IMG/VR virus record: IMGVR_UViG_3300036781_000230
Location: 15,072 to 79,071 of that record
DNA: 64,000 bases
From: a virus
Strand: one strand, 5' to 3'
In this document: piece by piece, positions 7,793-64,000 of the stretch
How positions within the stretch are numbered: the first letter of the stretch is position 1
Layout of the letters: each line of letters begins with the position of its first letter
Notes under the pieces: model-generated
The model's database searches: none
Seen by the model: the letters and a program-made list of their open reading frames with translations, nothing else
What the model was told of the DNA's origin: nothing
Position numbers and translations under genes: made by a program

Positions 7793-7795
7793 ATT

Positions 7796-8988: not shown

Positions 8989-8992
8989 AAAA

Positions 8993-10104: not shown

Positions 10105-10115
10105 AAAGGGCTCTG

Positions 10116-11315: not shown

Positions 11316-11318
11316 ATC

Positions 11319-11906: not shown

Positions 11907-11915
11907 TAAAGAACA

Positions 11916-12488: not shown

Positions 12489-12499
12489 GGGAGATTTTC

Positions 12500-13078: not shown

Positions 13079-13101
13079 TAGTTAGAAACCAGGAGATTTA
13101 G

Positions 13102-22693: not shown

Positions 22694-24591
22694 TCTGTAC
22701 AAGCCCTCCAGTTTGGTCCAGTTTCTACATCCCAAAGTAATGGCACGCGACACGGGATACGGCTATCAGGAGCTTCGAGAAGTTCTTTAAAGTTCTTCTT
22801 ATGTTTCGGATCCTTATCTATATCACCATCAAGTTCATCATGCACCGTGGCCCGTAAATCAATAGTGAGAAATTTACGATTGTTATAAGTTTCTAAGAGT
22901 TTAACTTTAAGAGTTTCAGCAGCCGTGCCCTGAATGATTTTATTAAGAGCTGAGTGTAGACGTTCTCCAGTAGGAAATCTACCTCTTCTCTTCATGATAG
23001 TTTTGACATAACCGCGATTTTTAGCTATTTTCATAGCTTCTCTAGTAAGAGCTTGAGCTTCAGGAAATTTAGTGTCATACTCTTTACTAATTGCAAACGC
23101 TTTGTGGATTCTGCAATCCATGTGGTGACTAGCTTTATTCCACTGATCTTTAGGATCGCACCCGCACTGACAACTTAAGCCGAGTTTTCTAGCCAACTTC
23201 GGAACGCCCATCGTATAGAGTTTTCCGAAATTATTATGTTTGGCGTCCTTTCGCTTTTGACCCAACATGTTTGCGACGAGTTGATGAAAATCCATCGTTG
23301 GGTCGGCATTATATTCTTTGATAAGTCGCTCTGACTTAGAATAATGAGCGAACCACCTGAACTCGATTTGACTAGCATCTGCAGAGACATATATCTTTCC
23401 TTGTACTGGAATCATGAGTTCTCGAACAATCCAATCTCGAATGAACTCTTCTTCTAGTTGACTCTCTACTTTCATTACTTGCTGAATATTGCATCCACCA
23501 CTCGAAGGTGCAGCTGACGCGTATCTTCCAGTTACAGTTCCAAAATCGTCATTCCTTAACTGATGAAGACTGTACCTCAAGATATTATCGCGGTCAAGAT
23601 TTTTCAGATACTTCTTCAAATACTTCGTATTTAGAGAATGGAGTTTTCTAGCGGCAATAACTAGTCGTATGCAAGGGTGCTCAACTCTTGAAAGATATTC
23701 TTCCTCAAATGTTTCTCCTCCACCTAGCTCTTCTTCTCTTTTAGGAATAGGAATACTATAGAAGTTAAACAACTTTCGAAGATCATTTCCAGAATTTGGA
23801 TTGATTTTCAACCCTGTAGTTCGGTGAAGTTCGAGAATGGCTGCTTGATGAGCTAGTTCAACTTCATGAACCCAGCGTTCAAGCTTAGGTCTATCAATGA
23901 GAGCTCCTGCTCTCTCCATAGCGCAGGTAGCATAGATGAGATCATCTTCCAGATTACATACATCTGTCAAATCTTGCTCGTCTATAAGTTTTTGTTCTAC
24001 TAAGTCTAGTTGAAGATGAAGGTAAGCATCGTATTCCGCGTACTCTCCAACTTCACTAGCGGCCATGTCTGCGATATTGCTTTTATCAGAATCGTGAGGA
24101 GATAACTCTGCTTTCTGTTCTCCCAGAAATTCAGTAGCTAGAATATTGAGATTAAATCTTCGACGATGCTCATCAAGTAAAGCCGCTTTGAAAGCCGGGT
24201 CATGAACCTTAGCTCCTATTTCTTCTAAATCTAATCCCCATGTTTTAGTTACATGAACATCAGCTTTTGCGTTAATGATACTTAGATGACGACCTTTAAG
24301 TTCTTTCTTAGCCCATCGTCTTACAGAATTCTCATCTATATTCCCGCCTCCCCGATGTCCATGAGGAAGATAATACTTCTTAAAATCTGGAGTACAAAGA
24401 GCTATTCCTACTTGCTGAGCAGTGAGAATGTTCTTGTCACTAAACGTAAACTCAGTATCGAAACCGAAATGTAGATCGAGAGGATACGCCGAAAGGTCAG
24501 GCAACTCTTGAGGAGCTGTCCAACCTGACGGAGCATGGTGCCCAGAGAACAAATTTCCTACCATACCTGGTTTAGGAAGGATTTTCGGCAT
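22690..24591 (-). CDS. polA: DNA polymerase family A with 3'-5' exonuclease domain
   Basis: FDTE, YAEYDA, TGR, DASQIEFR, RKDAKHNNFGKLY, VHDE motifs. Confidence 0.95.
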   Translation of the reverse strand: MPKILPKPGMVGNLFSGHHAPSGWTAPQELPDLSAYPLDLHFGFDTEFTFSDKNILTAQQVGIALCTPDFKKYYLPHGHRGGGNIDENSVRRWAKKELKGRHLSIINAKADVHVTKTWGLDLEEIGAKVHDPAFKAALLDEHRRRFNLNILATEFLGEQKAELSPHDSDKSNIADMAASEVGEYAEYDAYLHLQLDLVEQKLIDEQDLTDVCNLEDDLIYATCAMERAGALIDRPKLERWVHEVELAHQAAILELHRTTGLKINPNSGNDLRKLFNFYSIPIPKREEELGGGETFEEEYLSRVEHPCIRLVIAARKLHSLNTKYLKKYLKNLDRDNILRYSLHQLRNDDFGTVTGRYASAAPSSGGCNIQQVMKVESQLEEEFIRDWIVRELMIPVQGKIYVSADASQIEFRWFAHYSKSERLIKEYNADPTMDFHQLVANMLGQKRKDAKHNNFGKLYTMGVPKLARKLGLSCQCGCDPKDQWNKASHHMDCRIHKAFAISKEYDTKFPEAQALTREAMKIAKNRGYVKTIMKRRGRFPTGERLHSALNKIIQGTAAETLKVKLLETYNNRKFLTIDLRATVHDELDGDIDKDPKHKKNFKELLEAPDSRIPCRVPLLWDVETGPNWRACTE

Positions 24592-43148: not shown

Positions 43149-43680
43149 ACTCATCTTGTATGATGAGTGATGCTCATAGGAAAGCATGGGGAACCATGAA
43201 ACCTTTTGCAATGGGGTGGTTCGTTTTCTTCATGGGAAAAAAACGGAGTAAACTCATCCTATGAGTAGCACTGGTTGTACAAGCAACCAGCAAGGGAGGT
43301 AATAGTGATCTTTAGTAGGCCACTGATAGTCACGTTTATCGTTCTTGCATTTGTAATTGGAGACACAGACCACGACATCGCGCGGTCGGGGAAGCCTTCC
43401 CATAGTGTCTCATCAAATGCAGATCGACATATTTCGCCCGGCTTGGCGGGCGCTATAAATTCCAAGGGATGACATATAGATAGTAAAATTAGATAGCAGT
43501 TTGATACCCTGCTTAAGCGCCGGATAAATATCAAGCACTAAAGAGTCTTGACGCGTAAGTGGGGTATTTCGTAAGTTGTATGATGAGTGATGCTCTTGAA
43601 TCTAACCAAGGCTCGGGACTGACGTACCCAATACGTTCGCGGAAAGCCCCGTTAGATAGAGAGCATCACTGGTTGTATAA
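43149..43680 (+). ncRNA. Cassette of structured non-coding RNA elements
   Basis: 20-nt exact repeat at 43156-43175 and 43576-43595, each pairing with a downstream GAG(C/T)A(T/G)CACT; nested stems; no convincing ORF. Confidence 0.6.
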
Positions 43681-46216: not shown

Positions 46217-46430
46217 TTGGTTCTCCCTTTGATTTACTTACAAATAAGTAAGTCCGTTCATCTAACTTTAAACTATACAAATGAAGACCATTCTCAACTT
46301 CATCTTTAATTATCGTAGCGCCAGAAGCTAAGAGCAATCTTTTGAACTGCTCCGCTCTCCATGATTTACCGTATCTTTCTCCTCTAGCAATAGGCGTGAA
46401 CCGTCTCCTGTCAACACCATCCCACGTCAT
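46206..46430 (-). CDS. Small protein with terminase Walker-A-like peptide
   Basis: IARGERYGKS; coupled to 46427-46738. Confidence 0.45.
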   Translation of the reverse strand: MTWDGVDRRRFTPIARGERYGKSWRAEQFKRLLLASGATIIKDEVENGLHLYSLKLDERTYLFVSKSKGEPNVG

Positions 46431-46738
46431 TGTAACTTTAACTTAGACTGAATAAATCTTCGAACATTGTGATTGACGTTTTGTAAACCTATTGCTCTAT
46501 CGAATCTCTGTCCTTGTAATTTTTCGAGTGATTCGTCTCCATTGTGTGCCCACACGATAAATGTGTTACCGCTAAAGTCTGTTAATTTTGACTGACTATG
46601 GTTATAACTATACTTATGTTGATCGAAAGTCTCAAAGTGCTCATTTAACCACTCACGCTTAAACATCTCAGCTTGAAAACAAACTACACATAATAGTTTT
46701 TTCTCTTTAAATGTTATTTCGAGGATATCTTTGAGCAT
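46427..46738 (-). CDS. Truncated terminase large-subunit ATPase-domain homologue lacking Walker B
   Basis: Colinear similarity to own TerL segment KRVICG...YSYN...LGMTIGIALCDE. Confidence 0.6.
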   Translation of the reverse strand: MLKDILEITFKEKKLLCVVCFQAEMFKREWLNEHFETFDQHKYSYNHSQSKLTDFSGNTFIVWAHNGDESLEKLQGQRFDRAIGLQNVNHNVRRFIQSKLKLQ

Positions 46739-51269: not shown

Positions 51270-51278
51270 CGTAACACT

Positions 51279-51304
51279 ATGCCTCAGTCTTCGGACTGGG
51301 GCAT
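51279..51304 (+). terminator. Hairpin with cUUCGg loop after wHTH gene
   Basis: ATGCCTCAGTC-TTCG-GACTGGGGCAT. Confidence 0.65.
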
Positions 51305-51322
51305 TCGTGGGTTTGCGAGCGG

Positions 51323-51362
51323 CCTGGAGGATCGATCCTCGAGGCCCTACACCCGTCTCGAG
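51323..51362. repeat. Right arm of long-range inverted repeat
   Basis: CCTGGAGGA-N4-TCCTCGAGGCCCTACACCCGTCTCGAG. Confidence 0.75.
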
Positions 51363-51528
51363 CGGCCTGGAGCGGGCTCATACGGCCTACAGGACATGTC
51401 CTCCAGGAATTGTGTCATTTCACGCGCTAATGGAAAACCAGCCCTCCCGACTGACATAATCCTGGGCCCGGCATTTTCTTAAGAAAAGCTCCCAGTATGG
51501 GGCACCAATCACGGAATATGTGCAATGA

Positions 51529-51900
51529 TCAAACGGCGTTCATAATAGAGAAGATTCTATCACACTCATCTTGAGTAAGAACACGACGATCAATGTAGGC
51601 TGGAGTAAGTTCAGTAAGTAGCCACTCAAGCCTAGAGTCATTTGAGTCGTAACCTACTTCTTTTTCTATTTCATTTGCGAGTTCTCTTAGGGCATCTGGG
51701 AGAGTATCCCCAAAACCCGCAAGTCCTTCCTGAATATCAGAACCTATAAGAGCCAAGACTTGATTACCATCACCTCTACAGTTAACAGCGCAAGGAACAC
51801 TTCTCATGATAGGTCTTTTAATGCTCATTTCTTCATCAGTCATGTTTTCCACTATACTTCTCCTTAATTCTTTTTCTAAGAGCTTCATCACTTTCAACAT
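51529..51900 (-). CDS. HicB-like fold hypothetical protein
   Basis: DGNQ..ALIG..IQEGLAGFGDT..DAL motif. Confidence 0.55.
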   Translation of the reverse strand: MLKVMKLLEKELRRSIVENMTDEEMSIKRPIMRSVPCAVNCRGDGNQVLALIGSDIQEGLAGFGDTLPDALRELANEIEKEVGYDSNDSRLEWLLTELTPAYIDRRVLTQDECDRIFSIMNAV

Positions 51901-52007
51901 AAAGTCCCCACAGTGGGTCCCAGCGAGCGTCAGGATGATCTTCAGGAAGAAACATCCTAGTTACCGAAGGCGGCCGCATAAGGTCATCTAATCTCTTGAT
52001 ATTATCT

Positions 52008-52277
52008 TCAGTCATAAAGTTTTCTATCGTGACTACAGTAGTCTACAGGCCTCTCTTGATCTTCTTGTGGAGTATCTGTTGGCATCCCACAAAATCTACA
52101 AGAGTATGGGTGATCCAGCAGGTACTGAATATCTCTGAGTTTCTGCTCTAAGGGACCTTCATTAAAGTGAGGTCTACTGACGAGATTCAGAATTCTATTC
52201 GTTAAAGTACGGTGACCATTCTTTGGAATACATTGCTTAACTCGCTCTTTATCTCGCTCAATTTTTCTCAGTAACAT
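52008..52277 (-). CDS. Hypothetical protein with C-terminal Zn motif
   Basis: CRFCG...YCSH. Confidence 0.5.
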   Translation of the reverse strand: MLLRKIERDKERVKQCIPKNGHRTLTNRILNLVSRPHFNEGPLEQKLRDIQYLLDHPYSCRFCGMPTDTPQEDQERPVDYCSHDRKLYD

Positions 52278-52279
52278 CT

Positions 52280-52648
52280 TTACGCTCTAGCATCTAATAT
52301 TCCTTTCCAATAACCCGCAGACTCATTAAAATAAGTATCGTATATAGTTCTTAGATTAGTACTAAATTTATCATCATATGATCTAGATAAAGAATCATAA
52401 TAAGACTGTACACTTATTTCTTTTCCAAATAGTGTCTTAATTGGAACTTGGTATTGACTGGCTAAAAATACTGCAAAGTCATAAAATTTCTGGGCCATTA
52501 TCCAGAGAAACTGATTGTCTGATGTGATAGGTCCCGTCACCTGTAATCCAGTTTCCTCAAAAGATGTTTCGGACGCAAGCGCCTTTGAATTGACGCAGAC
52601 GGCGATGGTGGTGGCCGCAAAGAGTCGGAGAAATGTTCTACGTTCCAA
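52280..52648 (-). CDS. Tat-signal protein carrying baseplate-J N-terminal-like fragment
   Basis: MERRTFLRL...ALA leader; SDNQFLWIMAQKFYD vs own ADYQWISALALKLND. Confidence 0.55.
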   Translation of the reverse strand: MERRTFLRLFAATTIAVCVNSKALASETSFEETGLQVTGPITSDNQFLWIMAQKFYDFAVFLASQYQVPIKTLFGKEISVQSYYDSLSRSYDDKFSTNLRTIYDTYFNESAGYWKGILDARA

Positions 52649-52841
52649 GTGAGCCTTCTTTCTGTAAAGCGTTTAATTCTTTTTCAGCGTCTGATTTTGC
52701 TTCTTCAACTGTTGCGAAATATTCACATGGGCCATAGAAGCGGTCGGGTGACGTGCCAAGCGTCCAGACGTACTTCGTGTGAAAACTATTAAACCAAATA
52801 TCTACCTGTACTCCAAGGTACTGATAACGAGCTACGAGCAT
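52638..52841 (-). CDS. Hypothetical early protein
   Basis: Coupled ORF. Confidence 0.55.
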   Translation of the reverse strand: MLVARYQYLGVQVDIWFNSFHTKYVWTLGTSPDRFYGPCEYFATVEEAKSDAEKELNALQKEGSLGT

Positions 52842-53032
52842 TATTTACCTATGCTTTTAAAGTATTTTACCATCAAGTCCATCGTACCAAAGTTTATTAT
52901 ATACGGTATAGCATCTGATTCATGATTAACGTTCGTATTCATCGAACTCTTAACTGCTAAAGGTCTACAATCGCAGCTAGGTTCTGGTTTTCCACACTTA
53001 CCACAAAGGGTCACAGGCATGGCTGTCCGCAC
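52841..53032 (-). CDS. Small Zn-binding protein
   Basis: CGKCG...CDC. Confidence 0.5.
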   Translation of the reverse strand: MRTAMPVTLCGKCGKPEPSCDCRPLAVKSSMNTNVNHESDAIPYIINFGTMDLMVKYFKSIGK

Positions 53033-53481
53033 TTTCCACTAAAACCAGGAGGTACCGGGGCACCACACAAAGAACACGTATTATAATCTTTCGCGTCCCA
53101 TTCTCCGAGTAGATATTTATCGTAGAAGTTAGTATTGTGAGGAAATTCTACGATTTCTGGAAGAGCGTAAGAACGCATAGCAGATTCAAGATCTTTCTTA
53201 GTGATATTTGGATTATCTTTTACTAGCATTACCTCATCTGGTATAAAGTATGGCTTATCTCGTTCTTTAAACCAAGCTCTGACTGCCTTAAGACTAGTTT
53301 CATTAGTAAGCCACTTATCTTTACGCCAACCATTAAAGTAAATAGTCCAATACTTACCTACACGTTTGGCTACGTATGTCGTGCCCCATCCCATTCTAAA
53401 CTCAAATCGGCGACTCGTCATCTGGACGACGGTGCTGACTGGACGAGGCGGTATAACTAGATTTACATTAACTATTCTCAT
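53011..53481 (-). CDS. Protein carrying terminase-like peptides plus Zn ribbon
   Basis: DNPNI and FYDKYLLGEW vs TerL DNPNI and YYQRYILGLW. Confidence 0.55.
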   Translation of the reverse strand: MRIVNVNLVIPPRPVSTVVQMTSRRFEFRMGWGTTYVAKRVGKYWTIYFNGWRKDKWLTNETSLKAVRAWFKERDKPYFIPDEVMLVKDNPNITKKDLESAMRSYALPEIVEFPHNTNFYDKYLLGEWDAKDYNTCSLCGAPVPPGFSGKCGQPCL

Positions 53482-53750
53482 TTTTCTACTATGACTGAAA
53501 TGGTGATGTGAGTCTTAGCCATTATCCTCTCATAACATTCTTTGAACATTTGCTGAACACGTTCATTACCTGCATCGGTGTAGGGAATTTTTTCTCCTGA
53601 GTTTAAAGCAATTAATAGAGAATGCTGAAGATCTGCAGCTAAAGCCTCAAGACCTTCCTCAGTTAGTTTACCTGGAATTTCTATGTAGATAGGTGAAGCA
53701 ATACGAGCATTTTTCTGTTGCTCTTTAAACTTTCGCTCATCTTCAGTCAT
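53478..53750 (-). CDS. Miniature, rearranged tail sheath C-terminal-domain homologue
   Basis: KIPYTDAG, ARIASPIY, HITISVIV all match own sheath motifs. Confidence 0.7.
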   Translation of the reverse strand: MTEDERKFKEQQKNARIASPIYIEIPGKLTEEGLEALAADLQHSLLIALNSGEKIPYTDAGNERVQQMFKECYERIMAKTHITISVIVEK

Positions 53751-54204
53751 ACGGCTCCGGTAAAGCTTTTTGAAGTTTACTGTCTAATTCAAATATCTCA
53801 GTTAAAGAAGGTCCATTAAATTCTATCTGATCAAAGTTTGTCTGATCATATTCCATTAGTACTCCCATAGGTCTGTAGCTATCAATTACCTGCTTAAGCC
53901 TACTCATTAGAGGAGGACTAACATAAGTAGGAACCGTAACTGTAATCGAAAACTTTTCACCGTTTTCTACGACTAACCAACTATCCCCAAGTAACCAAGT
54001 GAGCATTCGGGTCATTTGGTTTTGCCAGGGAATATATCTAGTAGTCAGATACTCATTAAATGGAATACCTACTGGATCTTCAAACATCCACTCAGATTCT
54101 TTTTCTACTATAGGTTCCAAAGGCTCCAGTAACTCCTTTGGAGCGATGGTAGCTATAGCAGCTACTCCAGCAATCTGCTTAAAGAATCCGCGTCTCGTAG
54201 TCAT
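53743..54204 (-). CDS. Tat-signal protein carrying DUF2612-like baseplate wedge fragment
   Basis: MTTRRGFFKQIAGVAAIA leader; W...LVVEN...RPMGVLMEY vs own W...IIIDN...RPQAVQYNY. Confidence 0.55.
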   Translation of the reverse strand: MTTRRGFFKQIAGVAAIATIAPKELLEPLEPIVEKESEWMFEDPVGIPFNEYLTTRYIPWQNQMTRMLTWLLGDSWLVVENGEKFSITVTVPTYVSPPLMSRLKQVIDSYRPMGVLMEYDQTNFDQIEFNGPSLTEIFELDSKLQKALPEPYD

Positions 54205-54329
54205 ATTTTCCTAGCCTTTTCCCACGCTCTTCTAATAGGAGGAGCTATCCAATTCGTAAATCTCTCCAGTAGCATTCCTAAGAAAAACCAAGTGGAGTTG
54301 CTCGAATTAAGCCACTGTCTGATGCTCAT

Positions 54330-54372
54330 AATTAATTATACAATCTATTGTACAAAGTTGTACACAACAATA
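54330..54372 (-). promoter_or_regulatory. Early promoter driving the 51.5-54.3 kb operon
   Basis: TTGTGTACAACT...TGTATAAT on - strand. Confidence 0.7.
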
Positions 54373-54440
54373 TTACTAAGCAGTTATGACGTGCAATAAA
54401 AACTTGCGAAAAAAGCCAGTGGTTGTTATATGATGAATTA

Positions 54441-54587
54441 TAAGCACTGAGTCATCCTTTAACCTTTCACGAAACACGTAAAACGAATCTCCTGACTAAG
54501 ATCGTTAGACGAAGCTATCCGGAGCTATAGCCGGAGCATTAGATCAGGTTGTACGTAGACTCGTGAGTGGAGGTTTAGTTATGCTTG
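54441..54587 (+). ncRNA. Long hairpin leader at start of packaging/head operon
   Basis: Nested complementary blocks; RBS and ATG 54581 lie in the 3' strand. Confidence 0.45.
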
Positions 54588-54748
54588 ATCCTCAAACAGT
54601 GTACTTAATTTCTATCAGTCAATATACTCCGACATTTAAAGAAGTCAGAGAAATGGCTCGCATACTTCATGCTCAAGAATGTTCAAGACAAGTTTTAACT
54701 ACTTCAAGCATTCTGATAGAATCAAATGTTCAGATTGGTCAAGCGTGA
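54581..54748 (+). CDS. Small hypothetical protein
   Basis: GGAGG RBS; similar to C-terminus of 47089-47592. Confidence 0.5.
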   Translation: MLDPQTVYLISISQYTPTFKEVREMARILHAQECSRQVLTTSSILIESNVQIGQA

Positions 54749-55022
54749 GAGGATGAAAATCTGTGATGCGGGAAACCATCTCTATTTTTTCCACTGTCCA
54801 GGTTGCGGTAATGCTCATGGGTTCTCTACTGAACCAGGTCGCTGGACTTTCAATAATGACTACGTCCAACCTACAGTCCAACCTTCAATTCTGTGCAACC
54901 GTGACGATCCACAGACTCGTTGTCACTCATTCATAGAGAATGGGAACATAAGGTTTCTCAATGACTGTCACCATGTCCTTAAAGGACTCACAGTGACGAT
55001 TCCTGATTGGGATAGTTTTTAG
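54726..55022 (+). CDS. DUF6527-like protein
   Basis: CPGCGNAH, WTFNND...PT..PSIL, CHSFI..G.I.FL.DC.H.L.G motifs. Confidence 0.75.
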   Translation: MFRLVKRERMKICDAGNHLYFFHCPGCGNAHGFSTEPGRWTFNNDYVQPTVQPSILCNRDDPQTRCHSFIENGNIRFLNDCHHVLKGLTVTIPDWDSF

Positions 55023-55164
55023 TTCATTGCTTCAAATGAGTTGCTAGCATACCTTTCTAGAGGGTTAACTCGAGTGCCGGCCGTTTGGAGTGTTGAACTG
55101 GGATAGAGCGTTTCACCTAGCCTATCTCAGATTTCTGTAACAATTAAGCCTATGGAGAAAGAGC

Positions 55165-55446
55165 ATGGACTGCTGTGTGTTGAGTTCTGAGGAAGTTGGA
55201 CAGTTAAAGCACTACAAAATTCTTCCTAATCATGAGAATCATCACCACATCCCATGTGAACAAGCTATTCTCGGGCTTAAAGATGAGGATTACGAACTCA
55301 TTAGTGGATTTAACGGTCGTCAGTATCTGACCAAAACTAAGTTGTTTTTCCTGCGCAAAGTACCTTCTGGTGGTAAAGGAGCTATTCCTATAATTCAGAG
55401 AGTAGTCAGTAACCACTTGAAGCATCTGATGCCGATCAAATACTAA
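55165..55446 (+). CDS. Hypothetical protein
   Basis: GGAG RBS; colinear. Confidence 0.55.
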   Translation: MDCCVLSSEEVGQLKHYKILPNHENHHHIPCEQAILGLKDEDYELISGFNGRQYLTKTKLFFLRKVPSGGKGAIPIIQRVVSNHLKHLMPIKY

Positions 55447-55459
55447 GGGAGGTTCAGCT

Positions 55460-55903
55460 ATGTCCCCTTCGAATAGATGGCAACCTGGACAGAGTGGAAA
55501 TCCTTCTGGAGCTCGTAAAGGTCCTCGTAAGAATAATCTCTTAAGTCCTGCTTACAAAGCAATTCTCGGAGATATTCTAGATCAAGAAACAAAAGAAGAA
55601 TTCAAGATGCCTGACGGTTCTACTTGGGCTGATCTTATTGCGAAACACGTAGTTAAACGAGCTGTAGGTAAAGTTCCAGATGAGAAAATTTGCTTTAGGG
55701 CTATTACTGAGCTTCGAGAGACGACTGAAGGAAAAACTCCTGAGAAAGTAATTGCAGCTGGAAGCAATGAAGAACTTGCTAATTTGGCTCGGATCATGCA
55801 GGGAGACCCGGCACCACCTGAGGGAGACGAAGCAGTTATTCAGGACGATGAGGTTACGGAAAATGCCGAAGCTGATTTTCATAGTTCGGCAAATGAGGAA
55901 TAA
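55460..55903 (+). CDS. terS: Terminase small subunit (DUF5681-like N-terminus)
   Basis: WQPGQSGNPSG motif; directly upstream of TerL. Confidence 0.8.
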   Translation: MSPSNRWQPGQSGNPSGARKGPRKNNLLSPAYKAILGDILDQETKEEFKMPDGSTWADLIAKHVVKRAVGKVPDEKICFRAITELRETTEGKTPEKVIAAGSNEELANLARIMQGDPAPPEGDEAVIQDDEVTENAEADFHSSANEE

Positions 55904-55908
55904 GAGTC

Positions 55909-57177
55909 GTGCCAATCTTTAAGCCATTCGGACAAAAAGCCCACGATTTCGTTAAGAGGCATCCGAGTCAGGATAAGAAGTACACTCTTCTAGAGGGTAG
56001 TGTTCGTTCTTCAAAGACGTTTGCTGTAGATGCTAAACTTATACTTCAACTTTGTAACTACAAAGTTAATGGAAAGAGAGTCATTTGCGGAGCTACTAAA
56101 CAAACCGTCTATAAGAACATGCTTCTGGATATATTCCAAGTAGTTGGTAAGAAAAACTACTCTTACAATCGAGCTTCTGGTGAACTCTGGTTATTCGGGG
56201 TTCAGTGGTTCATCATCGGAGCTCGAGACGAAGCAAGCTACAAGAACATTCTTGGTATGACCATTGGTATCGCGCTCTGCGATGAGTGGACTGAATTTCC
56301 AAGAAGTTTTACAATGCAGTTGTTTCTTCGACTTTCTCCCCCGGGCTCGAGGCTATATGCTACCACAAACCCTGGGACACCTCAGCACTATCTTTTCACT
56401 GAAGTCATTCATAACGAGAACTTTGCTCCTGATCTTGAAGTTATTCACTTCACACTTGAAGATAATCCCAATATTGAACCCGATCAAAAGAGACAGATTA
56501 TCGCCTCTCAGAAAGGTGTTTACTATCAGCGATATATTTTAGGGTTGTGGGTGGTGGCTGAAGGAGCCATTTACAAGGATGCGTGGTCTGATGATCTACT
56601 GTACAATGATCAAACTAGACCCGAAGGATTGTATGGTTCTGGTGGGTACAATAAGCATATTATAGCTATTGACCACGGGACGCACAATCCCTGTACGTTC
56701 TTAGAGTTCTTCGATGATGGTGAAGTAGCGTGGATGGATCGAGAGTATTACTGGGATTCAGTTAAAGAGATGAGGCAGAAAACTAATTCTGAATACGCCG
56801 ACGATTTAGAAGAGTTTATTGCCAGCTCTAGAGTCATAGGAGTTAACAATCCTATGATTGTAGTTGATCCTGCTGCAGCCGGTTTTAAAATTGAGCTAGT
56901 AAAACGCGGCTTATATGTAGTTGATGCGAATAATGAAGTTCTCGAAGGTATTCACCGAACCTCTGAAGTAATGGCTTGTAAAGCATTGAGGGTTCATGAA
57001 GATTGCGCGAATGAGCGTCGAGAATGTGGTCTATATTCCTGGGATAAAAAAGCCGGGGAAAAGGGCAATGAGCAACCACTCAAAGTTAATGACCATACTC
57101 AAGACGCTAAAAGATATGGAGTAATGGAACTGTTCCCAGAATGGAGAATGGTATCTACTCTTCAAAGAGCGGCTTAA
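55909..57177 (+). CDS. terL: Terminase large subunit (PBSX-like)
   Basis: EGSVRSSKT, CDE, TTNP, DNP, IDHG, VDPAA, NDHTQDAKRY motifs. Confidence 0.95.
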   Translation: MPIFKPFGQKAHDFVKRHPSQDKKYTLLEGSVRSSKTFAVDAKLILQLCNYKVNGKRVICGATKQTVYKNMLLDIFQVVGKKNYSYNRASGELWLFGVQWFIIGARDEASYKNILGMTIGIALCDEWTEFPRSFTMQLFLRLSPPGSRLYATTNPGTPQHYLFTEVIHNENFAPDLEVIHFTLEDNPNIEPDQKRQIIASQKGVYYQRYILGLWVVAEGAIYKDAWSDDLLYNDQTRPEGLYGSGGYNKHIIAIDHGTHNPCTFLEFFDDGEVAWMDREYYWDSVKEMRQKTNSEYADDLEEFIASSRVIGVNNPMIVVDPAAAGFKIELVKRGLYVVDANNEVLEGIHRTSEVMACKALRVHEDCANERRECGLYSWDKKAGEKGNEQPLKVNDHTQDAKRYGVMELFPEWRMVSTLQRAA

Positions 57178-57186
57178 GGAGCTAAA

Positions 57187-57516
57187 ATGGCACATAATTT
57201 TGGTGGTTTCTCAGCTTATGCTAATGATGAAGCACCCATCGAAGAAATGTCGAATGATGGTGGACTTCCTGGTTCTCCTTACTATGCTGGAGACGGTGGT
57301 GATGGTTCTGGCGTAATGAGACGTCATCATGTGGAAGGTCTTCCTGATCTCGATCGTAAACCGGCTGAAGACTCGATGTCTATTCCTGAGGGAATGAATT
57401 CGGGAATGAGTGGAGATTCACTTGGACCAAGCGGTAAGAAATTTACCGAACATCTTCATTCTCGTAAAAGTGATGGTAAATTTGAACCATCATCTTTACG
57501 AGGAAAGAACGAATAG
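57187..57516 (+). CDS. Low-complexity head-module protein
   Basis: AAGGAG RBS; HSRKSDGKF motif; several AxD sites. Confidence 0.6.
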   Translation: MAHNFGGFSAYANDEAPIEEMSNDGGLPGSPYYAGDGGDGSGVMRRHHVEGLPDLDRKPAEDSMSIPEGMNSGMSGDSLGPSGKKFTEHLHSRKSDGKFEPSSLRGKNE

Positions 57517-57544
57517 TAGTTAAATTCGCAGTACTGAAAGGGAA

Positions 57545-57832
57545 ATGATGAAACGCCTTGCCTATACTCTCTTGCTTCTAACGGTGGTTCCTCTGACACA
57601 AGCTCAGACTCCTACTCCGCCTCAGTCTCAACCGACCCAAACTCTGACGAATGATCCAGTTTTTCGACAGATGGTAACTGAACGTGAACTTCTATTTAAG
57701 AAACTCCAAGACATTACTGAGTTTCAACAGTTCATGCAGGTTGAGCGAAGCATCGAGCAATACATGGCTTCTCATCCTCAGGCTCCTGATCCTAAGAGTG
57801 CTGTTCCAGTAAAACCTGCTTCGAAGAAGTAA
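57545..57832 (+). CDS. Secreted small protein
   Basis: MMKRLAYTLLLLTVVPLTQA signal peptide. Confidence 0.6.
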   Translation: MMKRLAYTLLLLTVVPLTQAQTPTPPQSQPTQTLTNDPVFRQMVTERELLFKKLQDITEFQQFMQVERSIEQYMASHPQAPDPKSAVPVKPASKK

Positions 57833-57853
57833 TTCTAAAAGAAAGGAGGTCTG

Positions 57854-59503
57854 ATGCCACGCAAGAAATCTACCTCTAGTATCAGACCTCTTCCAGCCAA
57901 TGACGATGCTAATTACGTTCGTCGTCCTAGTGGTATTGCTACAGACAGTTATAGCAATGCTCCTGCTCGTCTGGGTACTGGTACTCCTAATCTTGTACAG
58001 GCTGGCAACTATCCTCTAATTCGTCTTACTGAGGATTATCCGCTTATACTCAGTCTTTATCGAAGTTCTTGGGTTATTCGTAGAGTCATAGACACTGTAG
58101 CTAATCACATTTACAGTTCTTTTCCTACTCTTACGGCTGATCTAAAGCCTGAGCAGATAAGAGATTTTGATAGAGTAGTTCGAAAGACAGGCACTCTTAC
58201 TAAACTGCGCTCAGCCCAGAAGTGGGGGCGACTCTTTGGTGGCGCAGGTGCTGTGATTGTAATTGAAGGTCACGACGACTTGATGCAACCACTTAGTTTG
58301 GATGATGTGGAAGTAGGTTCTTTCAAAGGACTTATTCCTTTAGATCGTTGGTCTGGTATCATTCCAGGACCTCAAATCGATTCTAACATCAATAACATCG
58401 GAAATTTCGGTTTACCTCTTTACTATAACTGTATAATGGATGCTGGAAATGTGAACATCCATCACAGTCGAATTCTACGGTTTACTGGTAGGGAACTTCC
58501 TCAGTGGGAAGTACAAGTTGAACTTTACTGGGGAATGTCAGAAGTTGAAATCGTTTTCGATGAGCTTCGAAAAAGAGATTATAGTTCTTGGAACATCGTT
58601 TCTCTACTTACTCGTGCTCAAGTCTTAAGTATTGAAGAACCGCAGTTAGCTACTCTGATGTCTGGAGCTGGTGGCAGCAATAAGTCCTACGGTGATTTCA
58701 TTAAGAGAATGGAATCTATTAGCCAACTTCTTAATAATCAAGGACTGTTAGTTCTCGGTAAAGACGGCAAGCTTCAACAGACTTCATACGGATTCGGTGG
58801 TATTTCTGACGTTTATCATGAGTTCATGAAAGACCTTGCGGCTTCCTGTGAGATTCCGTACGAAATCATCTTTGGAAGAGAATCTGGTCTTGGAAGCAAT
58901 TCTGAAGGTTCTCTTCAGCTTTATGATAATCTCATCGAAGAAAAACGTAAATCTGAAGCTGATCCTAATATGGATAGACTTATTCCTATTATAGCTCAGA
59001 GTACTTTCGGTTTCGTTCCCGATGATATCGACCACGCATGGTCGCCGTTTAGATCGCTATCGCAAGAGCAGCGTAATAATCTTGCTCGTGGAACTACTAC
59101 CTCTATTGTTGAGGCCTTCAATTCCGATCTAATTACTAAACGTGAAGCACGAACTGAACTCAGAAATTCTAGCTTAGTTCATGATCAATTTAGTAGCATC
59201 ACTAAAGAAGCTCTAGCAGCAACCCCAGATAAGTTCGCCTCTGAGCTTGGTATGGGAGAAGTACAGGTACCTGAAGGAGGAGGTGATCCATTCTCTGAAG
59301 GAAACAAAGAGGAAAAACCTGCTAAAGAGAAATCTGATGATGACAAATCCGACAAAGAAGAGTCTTCGAAGAAATCTAAAAAGAAGAAAAGTAAATTAGC
59401 AAAAGATTCCTATCCTTCAGTTGAGAGTGAATCTCTCAAAAATCCAATAGGCTTACTCGACTGGATAAGTAATAAAATTAATCTATTTAGGGCTTCGCAA
59501 TGA
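57854..59503 (+). CDS. Portal protein (DUF1073-like)
   Basis: LYRSSW, WGRLFGGA, IHHSRILRF, WGMS, IPYEIIFG motifs. Confidence 0.9.
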   Translation: MPRKKSTSSIRPLPANDDANYVRRPSGIATDSYSNAPARLGTGTPNLVQAGNYPLIRLTEDYPLILSLYRSSWVIRRVIDTVANHIYSSFPTLTADLKPEQIRDFDRVVRKTGTLTKLRSAQKWGRLFGGAGAVIVIEGHDDLMQPLSLDDVEVGSFKGLIPLDRWSGIIPGPQIDSNINNIGNFGLPLYYNCIMDAGNVNIHHSRILRFTGRELPQWEVQVELYWGMSEVEIVFDELRKRDYSSWNIVSLLTRAQVLSIEEPQLATLMSGAGGSNKSYGDFIKRMESISQLLNNQGLLVLGKDGKLQQTSYGFGGISDVYHEFMKDLAASCEIPYEIIFGRESGLGSNSEGSLQLYDNLIEEKRKSEADPNMDRLIPIIAQSTFGFVPDDIDHAWSPFRSLSQEQRNNLARGTTTSIVEAFNSDLITKREARTELRNSSLVHDQFSSITKEALAATPDKFASELGMGEVQVPEGGGDPFSEGNKEEKPAKEKSDDDKSDKEESSKKSKKKKSKLAKDSYPSVESESLKNPIGLLDWISNKINLFRASQ

Positions 59504-59949
59504 AAACTCTATTTGCAAATGCTCTCGATGGTCTTTACTGGGCTAATGACTCATTACCTACTAAGAAATTTCATGACTTAACTTTAGTCATCGAAACTCC
59601 TAAGTTCGAGATGAGACAAGGTCCTGGATGGATGTCCAGCCCACCGGCCGACTACGGCTATATCCTGGATACTACAGGTGCTGACGGTGACGAGATGGAT
59701 TGCTATCTAGGACCTAACCCAGAAAGTACTATAGTATACGTAGTTGATCAGAACAGAATGGATAGTTCTGAATTCGATGAGCATAAGTGTATGCTGGGCT
59801 ATAAGTCTATGGCAGAAGCCAAAAAAGATTACTATGATGGCCACACTCATGGTACTCAGATCTTCAGAGGTATAACTGCCATGACTCTGAGCGTATTTAA
59901 AGCTTGGCTTAAACATGGAGATGTCTCTAAGCCTATAATTTTACGGTAA
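59500..59949 (+). CDS. Inorganic pyrophosphatase-like domain protein
   Basis: IETPK..R, YGYI..T.GADGDEMDC, FDEHKCMLG motifs. Confidence 0.8.
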   Translation: MKTLFANALDGLYWANDSLPTKKFHDLTLVIETPKFEMRQGPGWMSSPPADYGYILDTTGADGDEMDCYLGPNPESTIVYVVDQNRMDSSEFDEHKCMLGYKSMAEAKKDYYDGHTHGTQIFRGITAMTLSVFKAWLKHGDVSKPIILR

Positions 59950-60108
59950 CAAGATTAAAAGAGACTTATATGACTAACGATGAAATCTATCGATTAGCAA
60001 AGGCTGAAGACGTACGTTGTATTAAGCCTCTTATGAATTTAGTTACTCTAGCTGCTCTGGAAATTCTTAAATTAGAAAGTAAAACTCCAGTACCAGAGGG
60101 AGTGAAAT

Positions 60109-60972
60109 TTGTCGACCTCTTTCCTCGTCCCTGATCGTATAGAATCTGCTTATAGATCAGCTATATCAAAAGTAGTTATGTCTTGGGTTCCTCCAAAGTT
60201 AAAAGGCATAAGTCCTTCTTATTGGCTGAAAGAACTAGCTGATGTTAGTACTCGTAAAAGTATTATTAATGCTAGTACTAATATAGCAGTAAATATGGTG
60301 AGTAGAGTCAATGTGGTAAATGTAAAGTCTTGGAGAGAAGCTGCTCTCAAGGCCCAAAGTAGCAGGTACATTTATGATCTTCTACAACAAGAGTTATCTG
60401 GTCCACTAGGAATACGAGTTAGACAATTAGTTTTAGAAAATGCTAGAATAGTAGGACAAATACCTGGCGATGTCGCTGATATTCTGTCTGAAGAAATAGC
60501 TAAAGCTCAACAGCAAGGAACTAGACCTGAAGCCCTCGAAGCCCTTTTGAAACATCGCTTCACAGACATAATGTCTTGGAAAATAGCTCAGGTAGCTAGA
60601 ACTCAGTCTGGGTCAGCTAGTACTGCGTTAACCAGAGCTCGAAGTGAAGAACTAGGACTTCCATGTTTTATCTGGGATACTTCTGAAGATAGACGAGTTC
60701 GTCATTCTCACCAGATCATGGACGGTGTTGTAGTTTTCTGGAATGATTTACCTTCTCCTGAATCTTTAGCCGGGCAAAAAAGTTCTTTCGGTCGTTATGC
60801 TCCTGGAGATTGTACTAACTGTAGGTGTTATCCTCGTCCAGTGTTAACCCTTGAAGATGTTTTCTCTAAGAAAACTAATCTTATTAAAGTATACACTGAT
60901 GGTCATATAGTTAAAATGACTAGAATGAATTTTTCTAAGAAATCTGGTATTGAATCCAGAATGGCTGCTTAA
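60109..60972 (+). CDS. Minor head morphogenesis protein (Mu gpF/SPP1 gp7-like)
   Basis: ARTQ, W.T..D.RVR.SH, PG...NCRC motifs. Confidence 0.88.
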   Translation: MSTSFLVPDRIESAYRSAISKVVMSWVPPKLKGISPSYWLKELADVSTRKSIINASTNIAVNMVSRVNVVNVKSWREAALKAQSSRYIYDLLQQELSGPLGIRVRQLVLENARIVGQIPGDVADILSEEIAKAQQQGTRPEALEALLKHRFTDIMSWKIAQVARTQSGSASTALTRARSEELGLPCFIWDTSEDRRVRHSHQIMDGVVVFWNDLPSPESLAGQKSSFGRYAPGDCTNCRCYPRPVLTLEDVFSKKTNLIKVYTDGHIVKMTRMNFSKKSGIESRMAA

Positions 60973-60983
60973 GGAGAATTACT

Positions 60984-61397
60984 ATGAAGAATTTGGTCCG
61001 AATTATCTTAGCTCTTTTGCTCGGAACATCTGTTTGTCTCGCGCAGTCTGCTGGTCCAGTTGCTGCGGTTCCTGGTACTCCAGGTGCTGTTGCTGTATAT
61101 GGAACTCCTATTAACGGAACTCCAGTCATTGTTCCTGGCACTGTGATTCCGACGAACGGTAAGAGTGTACTTACTGGTACTATTACGGCAACTACAGCAA
61201 CTACGGCTCCAGCAACTATTACTGGAGTAACTACGAGTTCGGTTTGTGTTTTCTCTGCTGCTAATGCTATAGCTGCGGCTGCTATTATAGCAGATAATGC
61301 TTTCATTACCCCTACTGCTAATACAGTAACTCTTACATTTAGCGCAGCTCCAGCGACTACAGGTGGAATCTTTAAAGTTCATTGTACTGTGAACTAA
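60984..61397 (+). CDS. Signal-peptide protein with beta domain shared with fibre C-terminus
   Basis: MKNLVRIILALLLGTSVCLA leader; AAGGAG RBS. Confidence 0.65.
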   Translation: MKNLVRIILALLLGTSVCLAQSAGPVAAVPGTPGAVAVYGTPINGTPVIVPGTVIPTNGKSVLTGTITATTATTAPATITGVTTSSVCVFSAANAIAAAAIIADNAFITPTANTVTLTFSAAPATTGGIFKVHCTVN

Positions 61398-61406
61398 GAG
61401 GATAAT

Positions 61407-61607
61407 ATGGCAATTGATCCTGGAAAATCAGTTTTTCCATCAGATAATCAAACTCCCTTTGAAGGTGTTGAGAATCTAAATCCTGGTAATGGTGGTGGAA
61501 ACAGTGGTGCTGTACTTAGTCCAGCTCCTGGTCTTGGTTTATCTGCTTATCAAGATCCTAGAGTTCCTGTGAAAGCACCGTTACCTAATCGTCAAGGAGG
61601 TAGCTAG
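61407..61607 (+). CDS. Small Pro/Gly-rich head-module protein
   Basis: GAGGA RBS; colinear. Confidence 0.55.
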   Translation: MAIDPGKSVFPSDNQTPFEGVENLNPGNGGGNSGAVLSPAPGLGLSAYQDPRVPVKAPLPNRQGGS

Positions 61608-61609
61608 CC

Positions 61610-61948
61610 ATGGCAAAAATCAATGGCGGATATAGCGCAGTTTCATGGGGTCCTACTGTGGATTTAACTCCACACGATAATGGACCTATTCCAGAAATGA
61701 GTACAAGCATTCCCAGTTCAATTCCTGAGCTTGGAATTCTCACTGATGGTGATCCCTATTCTGGAATAGGAAACTACGGTAGTTCTGAAATTCCTCCGGC
61801 TATGGATTCTGATTTTTCAAAGTTAGAACATAAGTTAGAGCATAAACCGGGAGTTACCAATCCTGCTGGCCTCGCAGCAAGTATTGGAAGAAAAGAACTC
61901 GGACAAGCTGAAATGACCCGTCGAAGTGAAGAAGGTCGTAAGCACTAA
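61610..61948 (+). CDS. Head-module protein
   Basis: AGGAGG RBS; F.KLE..L...GV.NP.GLAA.IGRK..G motif. Confidence 0.6.
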   Translation: MAKINGGYSAVSWGPTVDLTPHDNGPIPEMSTSIPSSIPELGILTDGDPYSGIGNYGSSEIPPAMDSDFSKLEHKLEHKPGVTNPAGLAASIGRKELGQAEMTRRSEEGRKH

Positions 61949-63348
61949 TGCCTAAGTATTACTCATTGATGCTTAGTCCCAACATCTCAAAAACTGTTGA
62001 GGGCTATCTGATATGTAAGGATGTTCCTCTTTGTCGTAGTGGCTATCAAGATTATCTAGGTAAAGAACTAGAAGATTTTACCGGCTACGAAAAATCCTGG
62101 GATTTGAATCCAAATCAAATCTACAGAGTATATCGACCTAAAGATGAAGTTCTTCATCCAGATTTCATTGCTAGTCTCGAGGGAAAGACTACAGTAGATG
62201 AGCATCCCGAAGGAAACGTAGTTCATGTTGATAATGAAAAAGAGGTCAACTGTGGACACGTTCAGAATGTTCGTCAAGGTCCCATTATTGATGGAGAAGT
62301 TACCCTCATCGGTGACATTATCATCAAGGATCTGGATCTTATTGAAAAAGTTCGACCAGAAAGCGATCCGGATAATGAATACGGAACCGCTGTTCGTGAC
62401 GTAAGTTGCGGCTATGGTCTTCACCTCAAGCGTCTCGATGATGGGACGATTGTGATGCATCGGTTGCGTGGAAACCACGTAGCTGTAGTTGAAAAAGGTA
62501 GGGCCGGTCCAAGGTTTGCTATCAAGGATTCTGCTCTGCCCGAAATCAAAATAATCAAGGAGCCGATTATGTCACTAAGAAAGACGATTATCGGGCGAGG
62601 AATCCAAGCACTCTTTGGAGATATCAGCCAAGCGGAAAAAGACAGCCTCATGGCTGAGCTTGACGCTTCTGGTACCGCTAAGATTGCGACAGATGCTGAA
62701 CCCAAGGAAATGCACCCTGCTCACGCTTGCTTGGATCGCTGCTTGTCAGCGATGAAAGCGGGAGACTCCGCAGCTCTTGAAGAGCATAAGAAAGAACTCT
62801 TCAAACACATCGGTCATCATGAGCCTGAGCACATGGATGATTCTGAGGTGGAAAAGCTCAAGGATGAAGAGAAAGAAGAAAAGAAAGAGCACAAAGCCGG
62901 TGATGAGGAACTCGAGCAGGAAGAAAAAACTCCTGCAGAAGAATCCGAAGAAACCCACGCTACTGACTCTGAAAAAGCTGAGAAAGAGATCAACGATCCT
63001 GGTGAATCTGTTCTCAAGGCCGCTAACGATTCTGTTCGTGATTACATTCGAAACACTCGTCCTTTGGTTGCAGTGATCGCAAGCAAGGATAAGAGCAAAC
63101 GTTCGAAACATGAGCAAGTTATGCTTGATAGTTACAACGGCGCTGTTAAAGGCCTTAACTCTCAGGTTGGTCGTCGATCTACTTATTCGGCTCTTGCTCG
63201 TACGAAGAAACCCGAAGGTATTCCTGCTTTGGCTACTGATTCTTCAGCAGTTACCAAAGCTCCTGAGACCTGCAATTGTTTTGATGGTGTTCCGTACAAG
63301 GTCGGTCTCAAACGTCACGAAACCGCTCATCAGAAGGGAGCTAACTAA
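61948..63348 (+). CDS. Prohead protease/scaffold (DUF2213-like)
   Basis: EGYL, RSG.Q.Y, VYRP.DEV, SCGY, NHVAVV..GRAG motifs; charged C-terminal scaffold region. Confidence 0.88.
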   Translation: MPKYYSLMLSPNISKTVEGYLICKDVPLCRSGYQDYLGKELEDFTGYEKSWDLNPNQIYRVYRPKDEVLHPDFIASLEGKTTVDEHPEGNVVHVDNEKEVNCGHVQNVRQGPIIDGEVTLIGDIIIKDLDLIEKVRPESDPDNEYGTAVRDVSCGYGLHLKRLDDGTIVMHRLRGNHVAVVEKGRAGPRFAIKDSALPEIKIIKEPIMSLRKTIIGRGIQALFGDISQAEKDSLMAELDASGTAKIATDAEPKEMHPAHACLDRCLSAMKAGDSAALEEHKKELFKHIGHHEPEHMDDSEVEKLKDEEKEEKKEHKAGDEELEQEEKTPAEESEETHATDSEKAEKEINDPGESVLKAANDSVRDYIRNTRPLVAVIASKDKSKRSKHEQVMLDSYNGAVKGLNSQVGRRSTYSALARTKKPEGIPALATDSSAVTKAPETCNCFDGVPYKVGLKRHETAHQKGAN

Positions 63349-63353
63349 CCAAT

Positions 63354-63914
63354 ATGCCAGCCTCAGTAATTCCTGTAAAAGGACTATACCTCGGCTTTGT
63401 CGGCAACATCAGCAACGAAGGTTTCTCTCTTCGTACTGCTCGGCAAGTCAATCCTTCGGATACGAATCCTATCGCCTTCGGCGAAACCTTCGTTCTGAAT
63501 GCCAACAACACCTACTCCAGTGTCAAGACCTTTGTTGCTGCTAGTGGAACCGTTACCGCTGCGACTCCGATGGGAATTGCTGTTAGTAACGTCAACATTA
63601 ATCCTACCTATAACACTCAAGGTACGGATGGCGTTAACACCCCTGGTGGAGTTTATTTGCCTGGGACCATCATGGATGGCCTTGTTCAAGGAACTATTAA
63701 CGTCAGCTGCAATAACGGTACTCCAACAGCTGGTGGAAATGTCTATATTCGGACAGTTCTCAACGGTGCTATTCCGAATGGAGTTATCGGTGGACTCGAA
63801 GCTCAGGCGGACGGCTCAAACAGCGTTCTCTACCCGAACTTCAAATGGAAGACTGGTTTCCTCGAGACGGATCTTACGGCTCAGGTTACTATCCTTCAGC
63901 GCACTATTGCCTAA
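63354..63914 (+). CDS. Capsid decoration/cement protein
   Basis: Between protease and capsid; IAFG, GTINV, GGNVYIR motifs. Confidence 0.7.
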   Translation: MPASVIPVKGLYLGFVGNISNEGFSLRTARQVNPSDTNPIAFGETFVLNANNTYSSVKTFVAASGTVTAATPMGIAVSNVNINPTYNTQGTDGVNTPGGVYLPGTIMDGLVQGTINVSCNNGTPTAGGNVYIRTVLNGAIPNGVIGGLEAQADGSNSVLYPNFKWKTGFLETDLTAQVTILQRTIA

Positions 63915-63932
63915 TCGGCGGAAAGGTAAGAA

Positions 63933-64000
63933 ATGAATCCCAGAGAATATCAACAGAGCCTAAACGCTCTGCGCAGTGGGAAGGTACTTTCCGATGCCGC
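63933..64000 (+). CDS. Probable major capsid protein, 3'-truncated by window edge
   Basis: AAAGG RBS, ATG 63933 (MNPREYQQSLNALRSGKVLSDA); assigned by synteny only. Confidence 0.55.
   Translation, partial: MNPREYQQSLNALRSGKVLSDA

Follow-up and report, generated by a model that had tools for sequence, protein, structure and literature searches.

The DNA analyzed here is a 64-kb window (the whole stretch under study) within the 79,071-bp contig of the IMG/VR virus record IMGVR_UViG_3300036781_000230, and its minus strand carries a block of nine tightly packed small genes, denoted A to I, all of which are present and intact, as a first-pass annotation of the same DNA had described (Table 1). We consider it rather likely that this block is an accessory island of fast-evolving small genes that include domesticated domains of virion proteins, which would act as soluble competitors or holders. 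The clearest case is gene B, which, judged by its sequence, is certainly a stand-alone, circularly permuted miniature of the C-terminal handshake domain of the tail sheath protein. That intact, selected genes were made from virion pieces, rather than left behind by decay, had been proposed for the entire set; for B this is beyond doubt, and probably it holds for three or four more genes.

Family profiles of the late proteins, built from 64 related viral contigs, were compared with all open reading frames (ORFs) using HMMER (614 ORFs in one scan) and hhalign, the latter over 1220 comparisons in which 50 early ORFs served as controls and early proteins were used as targets as well, with significance estimated from column shuffles (110) and an empirical Gumbel fit. 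In addition, the entire early region was subjected to an unbiased six-frame scan against 33 late profiles. The sheath likeness of B noted in the first-pass annotation holds up throughout. The hidden Markov model (HMM) of the clade sheath matches B with E = 2.8e-6, the sole non-self match among the 614 ORFs; the six-frame scan recovers the sheath match with E = 9.9e-6, and the hhalign value is 1.6e-5. Three other comparisons agree: in the reverse search, the B-family HMM matches the phage's own sheath with E = 1.3e-6; B matches phrog_9590, to which the own sheath is likewise matched, with E = 1.3e-6; and BLASTP aligns B with residues 361-403 of the own sheath with E = 1e-4. Together with the clade HMM and hhalign, these make five independent sequence tests that connect B with the sheath. 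Pairwise tblastn of the late proteins against the early region yielded a signal separable from the reverse control only for B. The match of B to Pfam DUF3383 is local only and, at 13.2 bits, is under the gathering cut-off of 34.9, which is set for the whole protein.

B is not an isolated sequence. An exhaustive HMMER search identified seven further representatives of the B family, mostly of 86-92 amino acids, two of them with N-terminal extensions. All eight members are matched by the clade sheath HMM, and half of them (4/8; best E = 3e-4) by Pfam DUF3383, and a pattern scan derived from the family retrieved full-length sheaths of marine phages. The members P0004, P0014, and P0006 are encoded on contigs of 16, 31, and 50 kb, and the longest contig given for P0004 has the same length, 16,361 bp, as that given for P0017, which bears on whether homologues of B and C are neighbours. 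No match was produced when a viral contig collection was scanned for both the B family and the C family, or when a genome contig collection was scanned for the B family, and nothing usable came out of an ESM Atlas search with B.

In nearly all of the relatives' sheaths, the B-family HMM finds two matching segments, and their order is the reverse of that in B, which identifies B as a circular permutant. The R-x-A-x-P-I-Y strand at the N-terminus of the family corresponds to the penultimate strand of the sheath, and the helices that follow it correspond to sheath residues ~350-400. Altogether, B spans only sheath residues ~349-399 and ~430-475, in permuted order; it contains neither the N-terminal domain nor the exchange arms and so cannot polymerize as a sheath, and is best described as a derivative of a sheath domain, not a sheath. 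Positional mapping on the alignments shows that L364, Q369, L376, K381, P383, T385, G388, and R451, which are invariant or nearly so in sheaths, are kept in B. The AF2 model of B consists of three helices (pLDDT 72.8), with two strand-prone segments left unmodelled; in a Foldseek search with this model, the Pam3 sheath ranked 50th (TMq 0.45), and the Foldseek and VIA matches are generic helical ones.

The C-terminal domain of the Pam3 sheath is composed of three helices and two strands and forms a four-stranded inter-hexamer sheet with the arms of its neighbours, and the sheath initiator and terminator use the same four-stranded sheet (PMC9942802). With the sheath C-terminal domain (PF11863, phrog_205/9590; Pam3 gp13, PDB 8hdr/8hdw), B shares two helices, the KIPxTDxG loop, the ARxAPPIYV strand, and the terminal strand, but it differs from the sheath in size (90 amino acids vs 370-480), in its location in an accessory cassette, and in the permuted segment order. 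The gp25-like initiator (Pam3 gp21) is likewise a small, stand-alone protein, with a core like the sheath C-terminal domain that accepts sheath arms in the four-stranded sheet (PMC9942802). It nevertheless shows no detectable sequence likeness to B, has N-terminal strands that clasp the wedge, and is encoded among the baseplate genes; it is conserved universally, whereas B is optional.

One further miniature sheath and one candidate came to light. The former, of 107 amino acids and non-permuted, is encoded at 1565-1888 (minus strand) of a related contig, among small minus-strand ORFs ~2.7 kb upstream of the terminase gene, whose product is 81% identical to the terminase of the window; it is matched by the B-family HMM with E = 3.7e-7 and by the sheath HMM with E = 0.011. 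The candidate is encoded in the window itself, at 22379-22693, adjoining a 633-codon minus-strand ORF (22690-24591) in the block of replication genes. The first-pass annotation had listed it as a sheath mimic, and the B-family HMM does match it (E = 4.3e-4 among 614 ORFs), but the direct comparison with the sheath profile gives only P = 0.08; we regard it as a probable second, non-permuted paralogue of the mini-sheath. Permuted and non-permuted mini-sheaths at one locus would preserve a record of new phage genes arising from fragments of old ones.

Gene A probably consists of a leader of the twin-arginine translocation (Tat) type followed by a domain whose predicted fold resembles the one found at the C-terminus of wedge subunits of the DUF2612/Mu gp48 type. 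The likeness to DUF2612 that had been claimed for A is not secured by sequence, which stays below curated thresholds: the match to Pfam Mu_Gp48 (PF10076) has E = 0.01 and 16.1 bits against a cut-off of 37.4, PF11041 is not matched, and phrog_587, which is also the family of the phage's own DUF2612 protein, is matched with E = 0.06 (hhalign P = 0.08); the top Pfam and PHROG matches are colinear with the wedge-like region. The claim does find support in the AF2 model, in which the core of A (residues 49-125; pLDDT 70-80) has the element order alpha-beta-beta-alpha-beta and matches wedge chains of baseplates. Among 48,161 chains compared using VIA, the best match to this core is a diffocin baseplate triplex chain, with Z 8.1 and a root-mean-square deviation (rmsd) of 2.0 Å over 66 residues, although Z 7-8 is the typical best score even of models without a true match and the fold of A is common, so that Z ~8 alone is not decisive. 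Nine of the top 50 matches are baseplate entries, including those of PhiTE, A-1(L), phiCD508, Bas63, Mu, and a Streptomyces contractile injection system, and residues 56-125 of A superimpose on wedge C-terminal domains with Z 5.2-8.1 and rmsd 2.0-3.0 Å. The PhiTE chain (9mjn_dh) is the 'Wedge 1 protein'; the own DUF2612 protein matches the same region weakly (E = 0.5), and the chains matched by the own gp25-like protein are different ones. A Foldseek search started from the model of A yielded no match at E <= 0.001. Residues 1-44 of A comprise the leader and a low-confidence linker. Compared with the known wedge subunits (DUF2612 PF11041, Phage_Mu_Gp48 PF10076, PhiTE Wedge 1, Pam3 gp23), A would thus share the C-terminal domain but lack the N-terminal helical part of the triplex, with the Tat leader in its place. 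In Pam3, the corresponding wedge subunit bears the two tail-fibre docking sites. As a separate observation, a late protein of 224 amino acids with an N-terminal hydrophobic segment (19146-19820, plus strand) is matched by the DUF2612 HMM with E = 0.009 over profile positions 97-168, and no other protein scores better with gene C in BLASTP (E = 0.028); it may be another carrier of a wedge-type domain.

The contig itself provides a close relative with which the small-gene block can be compared. Its positions 1-13235 (denoted L001) are a second, diverged copy of positions 51353-64000 of the window, with a nucleotide identity of ~87% across the late genes and of 67-75% across the small ones. With the two copies only ~87% identical, we take the contig to join two sibling phages of ~66 kb each, most likely as a result of the metagenome assembly passing between strains. 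We also considered a true terminal repeat, given the presence of the 13-kb segment at both contig ends, and rejected it on account of the same divergence. A blastn search against phage records gave no match, and the terminases of the closest isolated phages are less than 40% identical. The sole public sequencing run that was found to contain the region is soil metagenome DNA.

Comparison of the two copies shows that A, C, E, F, G, and I encode proteins and that purifying selection acts on them, if in a relaxed form, given that the ratios of nonsynonymous to synonymous substitution rates (dN/dS) are 0.23, 0.22, 0.20, 0.33, 0.08, and 0.02, respectively, compared with 0.02-0.09 for the late genes of the same two copies. 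Gene I is the most constrained of the block, where its neighbours are 55-82% identical between the copies, and it has no family match. The gene content of the block also turns over: at the position of B, the sibling carries an unrelated 66-codon ORF, and D is missing, so that genes of the block are swapped cassette by cassette between the two sibling phages. A, C, and the ORF at 46427-46738 discussed below are orphans or near-orphans among 5.8 billion proteins; for A, the only sequence found outside the window is the sibling copy, and for 46427-46738 there is no homologue at all in that set.

In all these respects, the block resembles known phage accessory islands, which are likewise promoter-proximal, small, rapidly diverging, and cassette-swapped between close relatives. 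The genes in such islands are mostly uncharacterized and likely antagonize host defences or other viruses, according to a preprint (bioRxiv 10.1101/2023.04.06.535777). Derivation from virion domains is not a described feature of accessory islands in the literature we searched, and neither did that search retrieve a paper on stand-alone mini-sheath proteins or virion-domain decoys. None of the genes of the block matched a known anti-defence family in the searches made, which did not include a dedicated anti-defence library.

The products of A and F appear to be addressed out of the cytoplasm. Both A (TRRGFFK) and F (RRTFLR ... ALA) have a twin-arginine motif of the form S/T-R-R-x-F-L/F-K/R, followed by a hydrophobic region of 12-17 uncharged residues, as in Tat signal peptides, and this arrangement is kept in all 6 homologues; an AxA site is present in F only. 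Among 5178 ORFs, the motif was found in the A and F families only, and it was never found in reversed sequences. Unlike established Tat signals, these leaders do not reach the curated models (the best Pfam TAT_signal score, in one homologue, is 14.4 bits against a cut-off of 22.7), and NCBIfam assigned no Tat or other family to the small proteins of the block. Taken at face value, the leaders imply that A and F would be exported via Tat. To our knowledge, leaders of this type are seldom carried by the small accessory proteins of phages. The first-pass annotation had also mentioned zinc ribbons fused to the small proteins; Cys4-type motifs are indeed present in C, D, and G, but only the homologues of C matched zinc ribbons, and did so weakly, and ESM Atlas with C returned zinc-ribbon leads only. 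In the tail-fibre region, three proteins (12500-13078, 13102-17007, and 17162-17509) begin with Sec-type signal peptides, with a positively charged N-terminus, a hydrophobic core, and an AxA-like site. Such signals are odd for virion parts assembled in the cytoplasm and, together with the Tat-type leader of A, suggest periplasmic steps.

These signal peptides also feed an explanation that we think improbable, namely, that the small proteins are helpers of the phage's own assembly, with B chaperoning sheath monomers against the formation of polysheath and A holding exported fibre-like proteins in the periplasm. In its favour, recombinant sheaths can self-assemble into polysheaths without other viral proteins (PMC6357053), and the handshake platform is what the initiator and the terminator use to start and stop polymerization (PMC9942802). 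However, B is dispensable in the sibling phage, whose terminase is 98% identical to that of the window and whose portal and DUF2213 proteins are 91-96% identical (the sheath gene lies outside the duplicated segment). Furthermore, B is encoded far from the tail module and is closer to the sheaths of marine phages than to the own sheath.

Gene C, for which likeness to the terminase had been claimed, probably contains a stretch similar to terminase residues 170-215: the hhalign score is 33-34 (P = 2.4-3.5e-4), compared with a maximum of 24 in 110 shuffles, and exceeds most of the other comparisons, scores of this size are expected ~0.06 times by chance among the 1220 comparisons, and the two proteins have DNPNI and YxxYLLGxW in common. 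The claim is not seconded by HMMER, nor by Pfam or PHROG (both searched to E = 10), none of which gave a terminase match for C. The ORF at 46427-46738, another supposed terminase mimic, is marginal: its alignment with terminase residues 54-118 has E = 0.0018 by HMMER and E = 0.005 in the six-frame scan, but the hhalign value (P = 0.01) is within noise, and there is no Pfam or PHROG terminase match even at E = 10. The Walker A motif (GxxxxGK[ST]) was not seen in C or in 46427-46738, nor in the aligned stretches.

The remaining assignments fail. For D, which had been linked to the portal, there is no signal (hhalign P = 0.09), and the likeness of F to the portal is at noise level (P = 0.015); HMMER against the portal gives E = 0.99, and portal scores of this size are expected 4-6 times in the 1220 comparisons. 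The likeness of F to the baseplate J protein is at noise level as well (P = 0.022). A motif of the baseplate J kind is found instead in H, where hhalign gives P = 8.5e-4 over 27 columns that include this motif, with 0/110 shuffles scoring as high and ~1.2 such scores expected in 1220 comparisons, that is, within the chance range. As a side observation, the GC skew is reversed around 43259-43534 (minus strand), where a TTG-start ORF of odd composition is similar to the DUF2213 head protein over residues 27-79 of the latter; this ORF may be a decayed gene fragment.

These results bear directly on the explanation put forward in the first-pass annotation, that is, a panel of decoys or dominant-negative poisons, five to seven in number and each matched to one conserved virion protein, which would be made early and in a coordinated way, before the real triggers appear. 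Fragments of several virion proteins do co-occur in one phage, with A and B adjacent, and the genes are intact and under selection. Yet two of the five assignments within the operon, those to the portal and to baseplate J, are at noise level, and the set is not inherited as a unit, given that the sibling lacks B but still has A and C. Nor does a panel recur among relatives: a survey of their 4165 small ORFs, of the kind suggested along with the proposal, did find the mini-sheath again, and this single mini-sheath was the only virion-like ORF that was neither a normal small gene nor a gene cut by a contig end. Sensors of the Avs, CapRel, and DSR2 types act in the cytoplasm, from which the Tat leaders would take A and F, and hence these two are a poor fit for decoys of cytoplasmic sensors such as Avs. 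Finally, fragments of 45-65 residues from inside the ATPase fold are unlikely to display a native epitope. We therefore rate the panel as quite improbable.

A low but appreciable probability attaches to the possibility that the block is evolutionary raw material, in which pieces of late genes were fused to other bits in a recombination hotspot and have functions, if any, that are unrelated to those of the parents. The orphan or near-orphan status of most of the genes, the short and internal nature of the fragments, and the cassette turnover between the siblings all fit this possibility, as do the possible non-coding relic of DUF2213 at 43259-43534 and ORF J, a partial duplicate of the 5' end of A that speaks of local duplication activity. 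What raw material does not explain is the B family, in which at least nine divergent members retain precisely those residues that do not vary among true sheaths, and this family-wide retention makes pure debris unlikely for B, whereas the weaker cases could still be such. The dN/dS values, well below 1, and the compact, confidently predicted domain kept by A are likewise at odds with mere debris.

Thus, we return to the accessory island with domesticated virion domains as the preferred interpretation. The block would be the promoter-proximal accessory island of the leftward, replication-side, and presumably early transcription unit of a ~66-kb soil myophage. Illegitimate recombination would have placed copies of gene fragments in accessory slots, where they were then kept, with the mini-domains keeping the partner-binding surface of the parent without its polymerizing or catalytic parts. 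As far as the comparisons can tell, the retained pieces are interaction modules, namely, the handshake platform of the sheath and the fibre-docking domain of the wedge; with these modules kept and the polymerizing and catalytic parts missing, competitive binding is the most economical mechanism. B could offer the helix and beta-strand platform that receives the N- and C-terminal arms of neighbours and, in doing so, cap or hold sheath protomers, and A, exported via Tat, could act outside the cytoplasm by binding the partner that docks on the wedge domain. The target may lie in the assembly of the phage itself, in a contractile machine of a rival, or in a sensor of the host.

Several observations weigh against this interpretation. 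Four of the nine genes in the block have no link to any virion protein, and for each of A, C, and 46427-46738, one method or more finds the link weak. The homologue of A that is 59% identical to it (P0002) gives no wedge-family match. The two homologues of C are without the 10-residue insert that makes the spacing in C equal to that in the terminase, and without part of the upstream stretch. The ORF at 43259-43534 scores P = 8e-5 against DUF2213 in hhalign, with 30% identity over 50 columns, which implies either that relics also occur or that such scores mislead. Among the public runs searched, none that contain the region are RNA runs, and the binding mechanism is wholly inferred.

Extending the preferred interpretation, one could speculate that phages routinely recycle their own virion interaction domains into small, early, cassette-borne competitors, with B capping the exchange arms of protomers, which would harm competing contractile machines, be they those of co-infecting myophages, tailocins, or contractile injection systems, or would hide the sheath from an immune receptor, and A engaging the fibre-like proteins that would be exported via Sec; to this generalization we assign only a low probability. 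If it is true, it would define a general class of accessory genes that has so far gone undescribed. The origin and function of most phage accessory genes are unknown; here, interaction domains of virion proteins can be named as the source of at least one such gene and probably of several, which suggests a concrete partner for each, either the sheath arms or the ligand of the wedge domain. Should the mini-sheath bind sheath protomers, it would naturally inhibit or regulate the assembly of contractile tails, could become a tool for work on phage tails, tailocins, and injection systems, and would represent a new mechanism in conflicts among phages or between phage and host.

Table 1 Features of the window discussed in the text (coordinates are those of the window)
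Feature	Position	Strand	Description
Tail sheath	2293-3726	+	Own sheath, DUF3383 type; Pfam E 3e-44, phrog_205 E 1.6e-67; related to Pam3 sheath 8hdr; reference for B
Sheath initiator	9703-10104		Own gp25-like protein; baseplate module
Baseplate J-like protein	10116-11315	+	Identified by family search
Wedge subunit	11319-11906	+	Own DUF2612 protein; reference for A
Second mini-sheath candidate	22379-22693	-	104 amino acids; non-permuted
Singleton ORF	46427-46738	-	103 amino acids; colinear with terminase residues 54-118
Non-coding end of block	51277-51528	-	Structured; terminator-like hairpin at 51455-51437
Gene I	51529-51828	-	99 amino acids from conserved Met (ORF extends to 51900); 96% identical to L001 copy
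Gene H	51836-52015	-	59 amino acids; VESDEALRKR motif like conserved baseplate J motif
Gene G	52008-52277	-	89 amino acids; CxxC...CxH motif; homologues in L001 and in a second related contig, L003
Gene F	52280-52648	-	122 amino acids; Tat-type leader, helical mature part
Gene E	52638-52841	-	67 amino acids; L001 homologue 64% identical
Gene D	52841-53032	-	63 amino acids; GTG start; CxxC...CxC motif; absent from L001
Gene C	53011-53481	-	156 amino acids; conserved N-terminal part, terminase-like stretch, C-terminal CxxC...CxxxC zinc-ribbon-like end
Gene B	53478-53750	-	90 amino acids; mini sheath C-terminal handshake domain, permuted
Gene A	53743-54204	-	153 amino acids; Tat-type leader and wedge-like core
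ORF J	54201-54329	-	42 codons; opens at ATG matching the L001 gene A start
Regulatory region	54330-54480	-	TGTACA-N18-TATAAT promoter-like site at 54364-54335 and two TGTACA palindromes
Large terminase	55909-57177	+	Own terminase; reference for C and 46427-46738
Portal	57854-59503	+	Identified by family search

The plus-strand blocks of the window consist of tail and head genes, and the minus-strand block runs from 54329 to 20269, with the small genes first and large ORFs after them. Neighbouring genes among A to I overlap by 1-22 nt or are separated by gaps of 2-7 nt, and such tight coupling of starts and stops is the pattern expected of one operon. A single early promoter at about 54350 had been proposed in the first-pass annotation. 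A promoter-like site is present there and is conserved, with ~170 bp around it ~92-95% identical to the sibling while the genes downstream diverge; the number of such sites in the region, however, is no greater than expected by chance (8 found vs 8.0 expected from shuffles), and the qualification as early comes from position only. The two palindromes (TGTA-N8-TACA overall, 54330-54400) overlap the -35 box and the spacer and are kept in the sibling. We considered the TGTA-N8-TACA arrangement as a site for NtcA and rejected it given that its spacing to the -10 box is unlike that of an activated promoter.

In the sibling, the ATG of the gene A homologue is only 5 nt past TATAAT, which suggests that the first gene is expressed either from a leaderless transcript or from a promoter located further upstream. 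In the window, the first codons of ORF J are a corrupted copy of the 5' end of A, and the true start of A is 125 nt downstream; as such a degenerate duplicate, J is probably a leader.

At the opposite end of the block, an Rfam search of the window gave no match, and the stretch at 51277-51528 is GC-rich, 90% identical to the sibling copy, and strongly folded, with a minimum free energy of -102 kcal/mol (z -3.05; 0/200 shuffles as stable). It contains a direct repeat of CUCCAGGCCGCUCG, and the first base of the contig falls within this same stretch.

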